From Actinomycetota bacterium (GTDB lineage: Bacteria > Actinomycetota > Actinomycetes > Streptosporangiales > Streptosporangiaceae), in the NCBI GenBank assembly GCA_021324595.1, contig JAJPIV010000048.1, positions 1,876-65,875 of the forward strand: DNA of 64,000 nucleotides, in the 5' to 3' direction. Of the stretch, positions 41,811 to 45,207 are shown in pieces. The number at the start of each line of letters is the position of its first letter. Positions within the stretch are counted from its first letter, which is position 1. The notes under the pieces are model-generated. The model saw only the letters and a program-made list of their open reading frames with translations, searched no databases and was not told where the DNA came from. Both the position numbers and the translations under genes were made by a program.

Positions 41811-41855
41811 CCTTGCCCGGTCCGCCCTTGCCCGGTCCGCCCTTGCCCGGTCCGC
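41811..41855. repeat. Perfect 15-bp tandem repeat x3 (CCTTGCCCGGTCCGC), intergenic
   Basis: Read directly. Ends 13 nt upstream of start codon 41798 on the coding (minus) strand. Confidence 0.9.
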
Positions 41856-41877: not shown

Positions 41878-42459
41878 TCACTGAGCCGCCCACCACGCCA
41901 GCGCCGCGCCCGCCATGGCGAGCAGGACGAGCCCGTCCAGCCTGCGCCAGCGGACCACCCGGAGCAGCAGCCCCAGGTGCGCGGCGGGATCCCCGGCGAG
42001 CCCCGGCGCCCCGGGCGGCCCCTCCCGGCCGCAAGCCCGCAGCCCGCGCACGTCGCGCAGCAGGGCGCCGGCCCGTGCCGACCCGTGGGCGAGGCCGATC
42101 GCGGCGGCCAGCCACAGCCCGGCCACCGGGCCCGGCATCGCCGGGATCGCGGCGGGCAGGACCGCGAACCCCGCGTAGGGGTTCCGGGTGAGGAAGCCGG
42201 GGCCGAGGATCGCGCCCCAGACCAGCGCCCGCCGCCGGGGCGACGCGCCGATCATGAACTCCTGCGGCACCTGCCAGCGCCGGCCGGGCGGAGCCGGCCC
42301 GGGCCTGCCGGAGAGCTCCGCGGCGCCGTACCAGGCCGCGTAGGCGACCACGACCGCCAGGGCCAGCCACCGCGGCCACGGCCGCGCCGCCGCCGGCAGC
42401 GCGGCGGCCGGCAGCGACAGCGCGGCTCCCAGGAGGAGCCAGGCGATCACCGCGGGCAC
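41878..42459 (-). CDS. Integral membrane protein (193 aa), unknown family
   Basis: At least 4 hydrophobic segments. GTG start 42459. Follows the mau-like genes on the same strand. Confidence 0.55.
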   Translation of the reverse strand: MPAVIAWLLLGAALSLPAAALPAAARPWPRWLALAVVVAYAAWYGAAELSGRPGPAPPGRRWQVPQEFMIGASPRRRALVWGAILGPGFLTRNPYAGFAVLPAAIPAMPGPVAGLWLAAAIGLAHGSARAGALLRDVRGLRACGREGPPGAPGLAGDPAAHLGLLLRVVRWRRLDGLVLLAMAGAALAWWAAQ

Positions 42460-42543
42460 CGTGTAGGCGCTCAGGACCAGCGCCGGGCCGCTGAGCCTGC
42501 CGACCGGCAGGCCGGCCGCCAGCGAGGCGGCCGAGTTCGCGCC

Positions 42544-42621
42544 TCAAGGGGAGTACGCCTTGGAGTATCCGTTGACGGCCGCGAGCAGCACCACCACCGC
42601 GGCCAGGATCGCGGCGGTCAC
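42544..42621 (-). CDS. 25-aa hydrophobic mini-ORF (VTAAILAAVVVLLAAVNGYSKAYSP), or a frameshifted C-terminal TM anchor of the upstream gene
   Basis: GTG 42621 overlaps the upstream stop (GTGA). Contains a single clean TM helix. Confidence 0.35.
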   Translation of the reverse strand: MTAAILAAVVVLLAAVNGYSKAYSP

Positions 42622-43235
42622 CGCGGGCCTCCCGGAGCACCGCCGGCGGGCGCGCCGCCGGCTGCTGGCGCGGGGCCGCCTCCCGTCACGGGGCCGCCTC
42701 CCGTCACGGGGCCGCCGCCCGTCACGGGGCCGCCGCCCGTCACGGGGCCGCCGCCGTCGGCCTGCCCGGCGATCTGGAGGCGGCGCTGCTCGGCGCGGAT
42801 GTCCGCGGGAGTCTGGCAGCCGCAGCAGATGCACCGGGACAGGCAGGTGCACCAGCGCAGGCAGCCGCCGGGGCCGATGCAGTCGTAGCAGACCTTGTAG
42901 CCCAGGCCGCGGCCCAGGTTCATGCAGGCGATCCAGCTGCCCTGCGGCCACTCGCACCGATAGCCCTGGGCGTTGAAGCACTGGCTGGTGAACGAGCCCT
43001 TGCACAGGTGGTGGTGCGGCGGGCAGCCGACCTCCGGGCAGCCGTCGCAGCGCCGTGTCGGGCCGCACCAGCACTGGGCGGCCCGCGGGCGGCGCCCGGC
43101 GGCCAGCGCGGCCAGCCCGGCGGTCCCTCCGCCGACGGCGCGGCGCAGCGCGTCCCTGCGGCTCAGGCCGCGGGCCATCCGCTCGGCCAGCGAGCCGATC
43201 GCGGCGTCCAGGCCGGACAGCGGCCGGCGGCTCAC
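42618..43235 (-). CDS. Tat-signal, cysteine-rich protein resembling the methylamine dehydrogenase light chain (MauA-like)
   Basis: Long twin-arginine leader (…LDAAIGSLAERMARGLSRRDALRRAVGGGTAGLAALAAG). 18 Cys in about 88 aa, with CPPHHHLC, SWIAC and YKVCYDCIG segments. (GGGPVT)x4 tail. GTG 43235 overlaps the upstream stop. Confidence 0.6.
   Translation of the reverse strand: MSRRPLSGLDAAIGSLAERMARGLSRRDALRRAVGGGTAGLAALAAGRRPRAAQCWCGPTRRCDGCPEVGCPPHHHLCKGSFTSQCFNAQGYRCEWPQGSWIACMNLGRGLGYKVCYDCIGPGGCLRWCTCLSRCICCGCQTPADIRAEQRRLQIAGQADGGGPVTGGGPVTGGGPVTGGGPVTGGGPAPAAGGAPAGGAPGGPR
42672..42743. repeat. 18-bp tandem repeat x4 plus a partial fifth copy, coding (GGGPVT)n
   Basis: Read directly: GGGGCCGCC(T/G)CCCGTCAC units. 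Confidence 0.9.
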
Positions 43236-43882
43236 CGGGCGCCGCCTGCGCTGCCGATCGCGGCGACGCCCGGCCCGCGCGCGACAGCGCCCGGCCGCCC
43301 CGCCTCCGGCTCCCCGGCATCGCCGGCGGCCTCGGGCTCGCGGCACTGGCGGGCGAACGCCCGCACCTGGTCGAGGCGGACCACCGAGCCCGCCGCCCGG
43401 ACGATCCCCGCGGCGTCGACCGCCACCAGCAGCGGCGTGCCCGAGACCTGGTAGGAGTCCAGGCCGTCCCGCGCCGCGGGCCGTCCGATCTCCTCGGCCG
43501 TGGACTGGAACGGCCCGGAGATCGCCAGGTACTCCGGCGGGTCCGAGATCAGCAGCAGCACCCGCAGGCCGTCCAGGTCGCCTTCGGCCCGGGCGGCGCC
43601 GAGCGCCGCGACCAGCTCCTCGCAGGCGGGGCACGTCGGGTCGACGAAGCCGAGCAGGAGCGGCGTGCCGTCACCGGGCCGGACCCAGCGGACCTCCGGC
43701 TCCCCCGGCCTGGTGTAGGCCAGGGCCGCGGCCCGGGAGCCGGCCGGCGGGCCGAGCCCGGCCGCCTGGCCGTCCCCGGTGAGCAGCCGCCCGAGCTGCC
43801 GGAACAGGACGATCACGAGGACGCCCAGCGCGCACAGCAGCGCCCACTGGGCCACCACCACGTACAGCGGGACCTCGATCAC
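43232..43882 (-). CDS. Membrane-anchored thioredoxin-fold thiol:disulfide oxidoreductase (MauD/TlpA-like)
   Basis: N-terminal TM helix and a FVDPTCPAC (CxxC) motif. GTG 43882 overlaps the mauE-like stop (GTGA). Confidence 0.75.
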   Translation of the reverse strand: MIEVPLYVVVAQWALLCALGVLVIVLFRQLGRLLTGDGQAAGLGPPAGSRAAALAYTRPGEPEVRWVRPGDGTPLLLGFVDPTCPACEELVAALGAARAEGDLDGLRVLLLISDPPEYLAISGPFQSTAEEIGRPAARDGLDSYQVSGTPLLVAVDAAGIVRAAGSVVRLDQVRAFARQCREPEAAGDAGEPEAGRPGAVARGPGVAAIGSAGGAR

Positions 43883-44418
43883 CGGGACCTCCCCATCCCG
43901 TCCGGGCCGCCGGCGGCCCGGCCAGCCTTCGCGGCGCTGTACGTCGCCGCGGCCACCAGCAGCGCGCCGCCTGCCAGGGCGAGCTGGCCGGGCAGCCCCA
44001 CCGCCGCGCCTGACCCGCGGCCCGGCGCGGCGACCAGCGCCGCCGCCAGCGCGATGAGCACGGCCCGGACCGTCGCGGCGCGGCCGAAGCCGCGCCGCGA
44101 CAGCGCGCCGAAGCAGCGGCACGGGCTCCCCGGGTGGCGCGCCTGGCCGATCGCCGAGACCGCGACCAGGCAGCACGCGATCGCCAGCACGGCAAGGTTC
44201 ACCCAGGCGGCGGTGCTGACGAGGCTGGCGCCGCCGGCCGTGAGCTCGGTGATCGCCGCCAGGCGGGCGGCGGCCCGCGACAGCCGCGCCGGGGTGCCCG
44301 GCGGGGCGAACAGGGCGACTGCGGCGCTGAACCCGCCGATGTCGGCGAGCTTCGCGGCGCCCGCGGCGAGCAGCAGCACGGCCAGGGCGGCCTTGAGGCC
44401 AAGGGCGATCAGCGTCAT
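43879..44418 (-). CDS. MauE/DoxX-family redox-associated membrane protein
   Basis: 4 TM segments and a SPCRCFGAL (CxCFG) motif typical of MauE. Confidence 0.8.
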   Translation of the reverse strand: MTLIALGLKAALAVLLLAAGAAKLADIGGFSAAVALFAPPGTPARLSRAAARLAAITELTAGGASLVSTAAWVNLAVLAIACCLVAVSAIGQARHPGSPCRCFGALSRRGFGRAATVRAVLIALAAALVAAPGRGSGAAVGLPGQLALAGGALLVAAATYSAAKAGRAAGGPDGMGRSR

Positions 44419-44421
44419 CGG

Positions 44422-45039
44422 TCACGCCCCGGGCCCGCCGGCCCGCGCCGCCGCTGGCCCGCGCAGCGGCCTGCGCCGGGCCGTCGGCGGCGGCCCGGCC
44501 GGCAGCGCGGCCACCTGGCGCAGCTTGGCGAGCTGCCAGTCATGGTTGACCAGGCTGGAGCCGCGCACGATCCCGCCCGAGTCCACGAAGATCGCGAATG
44601 GCATGACGCGGACGTTGTACCGGGCATACAGCGCCGGCGACCCGGCGACCACGGGGATCTCGGCGAGGCCGAGCTCGGCCAGGGCGGCCCGCGCCATCGC
44701 GGAGGGGCCGCGGGTCAGGACCACGATCTCGGGAGGCGCCGGGTCTCGGCCCGGGGCGGCGGCGAGCAGCTCCCGCAGGCCGTCGGCCACGGACGGGAAC
44801 GACCGCAGCGAATGATCGGTGAACATGATCAGCTGCAACGGGCCGCGCGGCGGCGACGTGCGGGGCCGGCCCGTCGCGTCCGCCAGCGTCCACGCGGGCG
44901 CGCGGCCCCCTCTGGGCAGCCCGTCCCGCTCCAGCGCCGCGGCTCCGGACAGCGCCACCTGGCCCAGCCCGAGCAGGGCGTACCCGCCGGCCGCGCACAG
45001 CAGCGCGGCGACCGCGAGGAACGCCAGCGCGCCGGTCAT
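44422..45039 (-). CDS. Membrane-anchored thioredoxin-fold protein lacking the CxxC motif (MauD/TlpA-like paralogue)
   Basis: The fold pattern parallels the CPAC paralogue (…YNVRVMPFAIFVDSGGIVRGSSLV…), but the active-site region reads FTDHSLRSF. Start set at ATG 45039 because GC3 is higher from there; the track start is 45093. Confidence 0.6.
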   Translation of the reverse strand: MTGALAFLAVAALLCAAGGYALLGLGQVALSGAAALERDGLPRGGRAPAWTLADATGRPRTSPPRGPLQLIMFTDHSLRSFPSVADGLRELLAAAPGRDPAPPEIVVLTRGPSAMARAALAELGLAEIPVVAGSPALYARYNVRVMPFAIFVDSGGIVRGSSLVNHDWQLAKLRQVAALPAGPPPTARRRPLRGPAAARAGGPGA

Positions 45040-45207
45040 CGCCCGCGTGCCAGCACCGATCCGCCGCCATTCACCACCCGGGAATCCAATCATTGTGATT
45101 ATTCGGTGGTCAAGCGGGCGCGCTTGGCTCCCCGGGAACTCAGCGGCCGCGCGGGAGTAGTGCCCGGTGACCTTTGGCCTTGCCCCGCACGTGGGTACAC
45201 CGATGGA

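Follow-up and report, generated by a model that had tools for sequence, protein, structure and literature searches.

An in-frame UGA in a MauF-like membrane protein gene of Streptosporangiaceae is very probably recoded as selenocysteine

The window analysed here is a stretch of 64,000 nucleotides from an Actinomycetota bacterium of the Streptosporangiaceae (GenBank assembly GCA_021324595.1, contig JAJPIV010000048.1). In this window, the gene of a Cys-rich protein with a twin-arginine translocation (Tat) signal ends in a TGA that lies inside a GTGA, and the GTG at 42621 opens VTAAILAAVVVLLAAVNGYSKAYSP in another frame, an open reading frame (ORF) of 25 codons that runs into a second TGA at 42546-42544. 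To which protein does this short hydrophobic segment belong? The original prediction, which was right about the GTGA overlap and about the hydrophobic 25-codon ORF in another frame, had considered an assembly indel that hides the membrane anchor of the Tat protein, a separate micro-protein, or an anchor switched on and off by slippage. We arrived at a different answer, which we hold with high confidence: the 25 codons are the beginning of a single 247-codon gene (42621-41878) that encodes a MauF-like membrane selenoprotein and in which the UGA is recoded. All coordinates given are positions in the window, and all features of this locus lie on the minus strand. The parts of the gene are as follows.

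41878 to 42621, minus strand: predicted MauF-like selenoprotein gene, 247 residues plus stop, with the GTG start at 42621 and the terminal TGA at 41880-41878 (translation with TGA as U, orthologues, distant homologues, AlphaFold2 and hhalign)
42547 to 42621, minus strand: the "25-aa micro-ORF", corresponding to residues 1-25 of the predicted selenoprotein, an N-terminal transmembrane (TM) helix (conserved motif, ratio of nonsynonymous to synonymous polymorphism (pN/pS) and predicted local distance difference test score (pLDDT))
42544 to 42546, minus strand: predicted selenocysteine (Sec) codon, an in-frame UGA at residue 26, in the motif K-x-x-S-P-U-G-x-N-S/A-A (conservation; aligned with Cys75 of MauF)
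42514 to 42532, minus strand: hairpin 1, at +15 to +33 of the UGA, GGCCGCC-UCGCU-GGCGGCC (RNA fold; 89% of cells paired)
42494 to 42513, minus strand: hairpin 2, at +34 to +53, GGCCUGCC-GGUC-GGCAGGCU, the best candidate for a selenocysteine insertion sequence (SECIS) (invariant core; 93% paired; compensatory changes)

The frame of the 25-codon ORF stays open and hydrophobic past the TGA, as GANSAASLAAGLPVGR..., down to 41878, and the 193-codon membrane ORF that the program-made ORF list opens downstream at GTG 42459 is in the same frame. The surroundings of the TGA were compared among 37 close loci, which comprised 35 genus genomes, one diverged paralogue in one of them and one JGI contig. The motif ...NGY[AS]K[AS][YFCH]SP-TGA-G[VAI]NSAA... 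was present in all 37 loci. The 10 codons upstream of the TGA gave a pN/pS of 0.12 and the 14 codons downstream of it one of 0.13. Most of the variation falls on third codon positions, with a column entropy of 0.13 at the first position, 0.16 at the second and 0.85 at the third. Furthermore, a TGA occupied the homologous codon in all 12 distant loci with a readable site, which came from Chloroflexia, Ktedonobacteraceae, Limnocylindrales, Solirubrobacteraceae, other Actinomycetota and one contig of 41% GC; there, the motif reads G-x-[GS]-K-x-x-[ST]-[PA]-U-G-x-N-[AS]-A, with one or two TM helices upstream. In a sample of the family, the gene was found in 15 of 121 Streptosporangiaceae genomes, each with one TGA, and 14 of these 15 lay beyond the earlier sets. 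In all, the site was examined in more than 60 loci from Actinomycetota and Chloroflexota, and the TGA is kept there. The sole exception to TGA was a close homologue on the ENA contig contig_147971 (L072, 3313-3711), which carries TCA (Ser) at the site; its hairpins are kept and its frame is shifted about 110 codons in. It is likely a decaying copy or pseudogene, or else a long-read error.

The same observations bear on the view that the TGA is a true stop between two genes, with a micro-protein of 25 residues (up to about 65 in relatives) and a downstream membrane protein made by termination-reinitiation, the two acting as joint subunits. We regard this as improbable. A GTG does lie two codons past the TGA in 16 of the 37 close loci and is used by gene callers; the good packing of the helix in the AlphaFold2 model fits a separate subunit equally well, and some premature termination is normal at Sec codons. 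However, the second codon after the TGA is otherwise GTC, GTA, GCG, GCC or ATC, that is, the Val codon drifts to GTC or GTA and becomes Ala or Ile. In the other 21 close loci the next in-frame ATG, GTG or TTG is met only 8-53 codons past the TGA, and none was found within 24 codons after it in the Chloroflexota examples inspected (e.g. L082), yet the peptide in between is the one with a pN/pS of 0.13. Moreover, the codon directly after the TGA is invariably Gly with a variable third base, and MauF is a single polypeptide with a Cys at the same site. A stand-alone 25-residue protein would call for a functional stop followed by non-coding DNA or by a separately started gene; here the TGA is followed by conserved in-frame coding sequence without a start codon and by a SECIS-like structure, in a genome that decodes Sec, and the coding constraint crosses the TGA. 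What remains of the micro-protein idea is that the small ORF is a genuine coding sequence for a TM helix, coupled by GTGA or ATGA, with its own initiation, and kept in all orthologues examined.

The split at the TGA recurs in public gene calls. A search of a representative library returned 157 relatives, almost all of them called from just past the TGA position, and in the database entries examined the gene was either a truncated "hypothetical protein" starting past the UGA or a protein with the UGA as Trp (code 4). One JGI and one Logan gene call recover the protein only with the TGA read as Trp, which indicates that gene callers meet the same open frame. When 400 genomes of the class were searched with the single protein, the matches outside the genus did not rise above chance level, and a profile was needed to reach the relatives. 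The calls are inconsistent in the protein entries P0004, P0197 and P0225, two of which have the TGA as Trp under code 4, and a call of 294 residues attaches to the membrane protein pieces of the Cys-rich gene that are out of frame.

The identity of the read-through protein was then sought by homology and fold. It had no Pfam or NCBIfam match (NCBIfam of June 2026), PDB sequence searches returned no solved relative, the best Foldseek match against the PDB had an E-value of 0.25, and tblastn of the selenoprotein against plasmids gave no match. When the family was aligned by hhalign with a 19-sequence alignment of MauF, the probability was 94.1% with an E-value of 1.3e-7 over 158 columns, and U was placed on the invariant Cys75 of MauF (SPUG versus SPCG). 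The annotated MauF of Paracoccus yeei reads ...GLLSTWSPCGYSSISLLRPTGRG..., with ...TWSPCGYSS... The alignment also matches P-x-GR, YG..E/Q, a (W/A)QVP block after PPGR/YPQRR, and a G..LG...T block. Since U falls on the invariant Cys75, MauF is, as judged by sequence comparison, the Cys-containing homologue of the selenoprotein. The AlphaFold2 model of the full read-through protein, built on a 30-row alignment, had a pLDDT of 91.5, a predicted template modelling score of 0.90 and eight helices; the helix of the micro-ORF had a pLDDT of 97, and U26 stood at the start of a short second helix. U26 is the only conserved Cys/Sec of the family. With the helices taken from this model, the side of residues 21-43 counts 16 Arg/Lys against 2 on the other, and by the positive-inside rule residues 21-43, including the Sec, would lie on the cytoplasmic face.

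Downstream of the UGA, hairpin 2 was the better kept of the two structures. Its core CCGGUCGG (alignment columns 40-47) is nucleotide-invariant although it is composed of degenerate codons, and 93% of cells are paired across 36 sequences. Pair 36-51 is C-G in 21 and U-A in 12 sequences, pair 39-48 occurs as four pair types (U-G, C-G, G-C and U-A), and slid registers drop to 33-59% paired. For hairpin 1, 89% of cells are paired. More weight is due to the distant homologues, including those of Chloroflexota, in which the sequences of the two hairpins differ but their distances from the UGA do not; hairpin 2 reads, for example, UAUCCUC-CGGGC-GAGGAUA or UUCCUCC-GGA-GGAGGAA, in which a YCCUCC/GGAGGR stem is kept with a GG-containing loop at +38 to +42. 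Among homologues, the loop of hairpin 1 starts at +17 to +23 and that of hairpin 2 at +38 to +42, and the peptide of the hairpin region differs between groups (LPVGR versus SSGRG). A downstream stem-loop with a G in a small apical loop, as expected of a SECIS, is what hairpin 2 presents, with a GGUC, CGGGC or GGA loop. On these sequence comparisons, hairpin 2 with its GGUC loop is most likely the candidate SelB-binding SECIS; hairpin 1 alone was also considered. A covariance model scan of this genome returned its own site only.

The genome is equipped to decode Sec. It has a tRNA-Sec with the TCA anticodon, flanked by selD and selB, and selA on another contig. In the genus, tRNA-Sec was found in 36 of 39 genomes and selA in 34 of 39, the misses being in fragmented metagenome-assembled genomes (MAGs), and tRNA-Sec was found in four of five distant carrier genomes. 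In the family sample, selA was present in 14 of 15 carriers compared to 61 of 106 non-carriers, relatives that are not independent of one another. The SelD of this genome has no UGA or other in-frame stop, and neither do its FdnG-type and FdhF-type formate dehydrogenases; its FdhA is of the Cys type (RLCHASS).

Several results weigh against a Sec-containing protein of the MauF kind. The homology is remote: single-sequence hhalign against MauF reached 85%, against 94% for the profile-profile comparison, and MauF is the sole Cys homologue through which the Sec/Cys pairing is seen, no Cys form having been found within the close family in the search of relatives. The protein lacks a nearby Cys as well as any CxxU or UxxC motif. 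Two genomes, G022 (94% complete) and G025 (88% complete), have the gene, and neither selA nor tRNA-Sec was found in them. In this genome, no second selenoprotein gene for SECIS comparison was found by three crude scans on TGA, GC content at third codon positions and hairpins, each of them either overly strict or overly noisy; antisense frames resemble coding ones in such scans. As to the hairpins, the covariation score of hairpin 2 was reached by none of 500 shuffles, and these controls overstate covariation since the sequences are related. The GGUC loop of hairpin 2 starts at +42, 38 nt after the UGA (34-38 nt among homologues), and the spacing window of bSECISearch is reportedly about 16-37 nt, so that hairpin 2 is at the far edge, with hairpin 1 at the canonical distance. 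The loop of E. coli fdhF is GGUC as well and lies about 18 nt after its UGA, which puts the loop of hairpin 2 about 20 nt further out. Hairpin 1 has no conserved loop with G first and is less well kept, with mismatches in 12 of 36 sequences at one pair.

Some of these points would suit a programmed read-through without Sec, in which a near-cognate tRNA inserts Trp or Cys at the UGA and the hairpins act as stimulators. That the frame is read through is clear, the hairpins are spaced unusually for a SECIS of the E. coli type, and a redox partner Cys is absent nearby. However, the Sec machinery accompanies the gene in nearly all carriers, as counted above for the family sample and the distant genomes, and the UGA sits on the invariant Cys of MauF, a classic Sec/Cys pair. 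To our knowledge, no conserved bacterial UGA read-through of such a kind is known. We therefore give this explanation a small chance, and keep to the recoding of the UGA as Sec.

In the selenoprotein reading, translation would be coupled to the upstream Cys-rich Tat gene by the GTGA overlap and by a Shine-Dalgarno-like GGGAGG (42633-42628), which lies 6 nt upstream of GTG 42621. SelB with Sec-tRNA(Sec) would bind the mRNA stem-loop just past the UGA, most likely hairpin 2, and UGA codon 26 would be read as Sec. The product would be a polytopic membrane protein with the motif K-x-x-S-P-U-G-x-N, in which Sec takes the place of the invariant Cys of MauF. When SelB is inactive, for example at low selenium, the ribosome would stop and a 25-residue helix would be released. 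What was observed is the conservation of the UGA and of the coding sequence around it, the hairpins, the Sec machinery, the homology to MauF and the cassette described below; we infer the insertion of Sec, the choice of hairpin by SelB, the cytoplasmic position of the Sec and its redox role.

The anchor proposed for the Cys-rich protein concerns the gene upstream and its tail.

42618 to 43235, minus strand: gene of an 18-Cys protein with a Tat signal (SRRDALRR); the gene overlaps both neighbours, with its GTG start on the stop of the MauD-like gene and its TGA on the GTG that opens the selenoprotein gene
42671 to 42755, minus strand: tandem repeat of an 18-bp unit in 4.7 copies, which encodes (GGGPVT)n in the C-terminal tail of the Cys-rich protein, a part that is not conserved (Tandem Repeats Finder)

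The tail consists of GGGPVT four times, followed by GGGPAPAAGGAPAGGAPGGPR and the stop TGA 42620-42618 inside the GTGA. A one-base assembly error or slippage at 42625-42627 was proposed to hide, or to switch, a C-terminal TM anchor of this protein. The arithmetic is correct, in that one added base there joins both frames; a nearby repeat is length-polymorphic, and tail-anchored Tat substrates do exist. HybO and FdnH, which are of this type, resemble the locus in having a Tat signal upstream and a TM helix encoded right after; here, in contrast, all orthologues examined encode the helix in a different frame and a different gene, as the N-terminus of the next protein. The junction was compared in 20 genus loci and in four further same-species assemblies (two from NCBI, one from ENA and one from Logan). 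None of the 20 orthologues was fused: the two genes are split in each of them, the G/ATGA overlap is kept in 18, and the Cys-rich protein ends a few residues past a conserved ...RAEQxRLQ in the same arrangement throughout. The distant cassettes keep separate genes as well. All four same-species assemblies have the identical junction sequence and the identical TGA. A Tat substrate with a tail anchor would carry the C-terminal TM helix in its own frame, whereas separate frames were found in all 20 orthologues and four assemblies, and the hydrophobic ORF belongs to the downstream protein by homology and fold. Therefore, the homopolymer at 42625-42627 is no assembly error, as the independent same-species assemblies and the unfused orthologues indicate, and a frameshifted anchor can practically be discarded.

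The 18-bp repeat itself, at 42671-42755 with 98% matches, agrees with what the original prediction described; its units at 42672-42743 were correctly placed, and the range "42672-43743" given beside them is a typing slip. The repeat changes by whole 18-bp units only. Of the four full units, only three are present in the ENA assembly; this difference leaves the frame unchanged and gives no basis for slippage-switched anchoring. The (GGGPVT)n tail was not found in any of the 19 other genus orthologues examined, only in this species, and since it is so restricted and varies in unit number, we consider it a young, length-polymorphic, low-complexity tail; it is the tail of the Cys-rich client protein without a role in anchoring. 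A tandem array of a 15-bp unit, GCGGACCGGGCAAGG on the coding strand, lies at window positions 41811-41855, between the selenoprotein stop and the next gene. It has three copies here and in the two NCBI assemblies, and two copies in the ENA assembly, the one that also has one 18-bp unit less. As both arrays differ in copy number among assemblies of the same species, the 18-bp and the 15-bp arrays are length-polymorphic within the species.

That the locus is a pseudogene, a membrane protein gene broken by a nonsense mutation, is hardly credible, for although an in-frame stop does split a continuous ORF and one homologue has TCA with a downstream frameshift, the same TGA recurs in two phyla, and the codons before and after it are under purifying selection.

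The selenoprotein gene is the last of a five-gene cassette, the upstream members of which are listed below.

43232 to 43882, minus strand: MauD-like membrane-anchored protein of thioredoxin fold with CPAC (TIGR02661 MauD, E 3.4e-6, below the cut-off; weak thioredoxin Pfam matches; tblastn retrieves annotated mauD genes)
43879 to 44418, minus strand: MauE-like membrane protein with a C-x-C motif, CRCFG (PF07291 MauE, E 8e-13, 49 bits, above the cut-off)
44422 to 45093, minus strand: MauD/TlpA-like protein without CxxC, the first gene of the cassette (weak TIGR02661 match, E 0.0028)

The cassette, made up of the TlpA/MauD-like gene without CxxC, MauE (CxC), the MauD-like gene (CPAC), the hyper-Cys Tat protein and finally the MauF-like selenoprotein, is shared by groups as far apart as Streptosporangiaceae and Chloroflexota. 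Orthologues of the Cys-rich gene were found in 34 of the 36 other genus genomes searched, and the gene has the same position in the Chloroflexota cassettes. Two MauD/TlpA-like paralogues thus flank mauE, with CxxC (CPAC) in the second only. The paralogue without CxxC is also present in the cassettes of Chloroflexota and Solirubrobacteraceae, which suggests that the absence of the motif is not a recent loss. In a Ktedonobacteraceae MAG (L083, 2006-3055), two tandem Cys-rich paralogues with Tat signals stand ahead of the selenoprotein gene. The genes flanking the cassette encode a small secreted protein and a protein of the diaminopimelate decarboxylase type. No gene for a methylamine dehydrogenase heavy chain, MauG, amicyanin or a MauA-type subunit (Me-amine-dh_L) adjoins the cassette.

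According to one report, MauE is a DsbB-like oxidase that can substitute for DsbB in E. coli through a CXC site (bioRxiv 10.64898/2026.03.05.709764). We consider it most likely that the cassette serves the oxidative folding of the Cys-rich client. The Sec may be the redox-active residue of a membrane partner in this folding, a possibility to which we give rather less than an even chance. A broader proposal is more tentative still, and we would at present rather doubt it: the MauF-like protein would represent a new class of membrane selenoenzyme, with a single catalytic Sec that works with MauE and the MauD-like thioredoxins on hyper-Cys Tat exports, and might be the main selenoprotein of the genus, for which the Sec machinery is maintained (FdhA is of the Cys type and SelD is without UGA), with selenium gating the pathway. 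If this were true, selenium supply would decide between the full-length enzyme and the 25-residue stub.

The nearest known system is MauF itself, which is encoded in mauFBEDACJG clusters (Paracoccus yeei WP_150349307.1; Methylobacterium sp. DM1 AWI91945.1). The two proteins share the single invariant Cys/Sec and the surrounding motifs, and the gene of MauF, like the one here, shares its operon with those of MauE, MauD and a small exported protein rich in Cys. They differ in that MauF has Cys instead of Sec, is encoded first in its cluster rather than last, and occurs in Pseudomonadota rather than in Actinomycetota and Chloroflexota; its identity to the selenoprotein is too low for phmmer or tblastn. 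Since no methylamine dehydrogenase cluster lies alongside (mauB, mauA, mauG and amicyanin are all missing there), we call the protein MauF-like and not an orthologue of MauF. Compared with selenoprotein genes of the E. coli fdhF type, the in-frame UGA, the downstream intragenic stem-loop, the GGUC/GG loop, selA-D and the Cys homologues are shared, whereas two tandem hairpins are present here, the GG loop comes about 35-38 nt past the UGA, and the Sec is residue 26 of a protein that is polytopic in the membrane. CcdA and DsbD are also polytopic membrane proteins in which S-P-C/U opens a membrane segment. Against DsbD_2, which has a cut-off of 24.9 bits, one MauF homologue scored 24.4 bits, and some sources name MauF "CcdA". 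However, the selenoprotein and its homologues have no DsbD or DsbD_2 match and have one redox residue instead of two. We take the CcdA link of MauF as a lead only, given the single conserved Cys/Sec.

A 2026 compilation of 119 prokaryotic selenoprotein families and subfamilies (PMC13188914) does not list this one. A term search of the deep-Sep and BSepDB papers brought up no such membrane or actinobacterial family, and our literature search found no publication describing this selenoprotein family. If the UGA is recoded as proposed, the public models of this gene would be wrong in many soil Actinomycetota and Chloroflexota, and a polytopic membrane protein would be added to the known selenoproteins. 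It would also tie selenium to the disulfide-forming MauE/MauD pathway, which has recently been recognised as a general oxidative-folding system, and would single out the one Cys of MauF, a protein long enigmatic, as its functional residue. Scans for Sec that rely on close Cys homologues, or that allow little variation in SECIS spacing, would probably overlook this family.

Two minor observations concern the Sec loci of the genus. The sel locus of this genome (selD, tRNA-Sec and selB) is about 16 kb from the FdhF-type formate dehydrogenase gene, which carries Cys (RLCHASS) where the Sec type has U (contig C132, 4723-6861 and 22945-25161, outside the window). In another genome, G018, a second, diverged copy of the selenoprotein gene (L068, C10:2127513-2128136) has 51% identity and keeps the TGA, and the same contig also carries a second selA, with an in-frame TGA, and a second tRNA-Sec, at C10:450939-452219 and C10:464461-464552.

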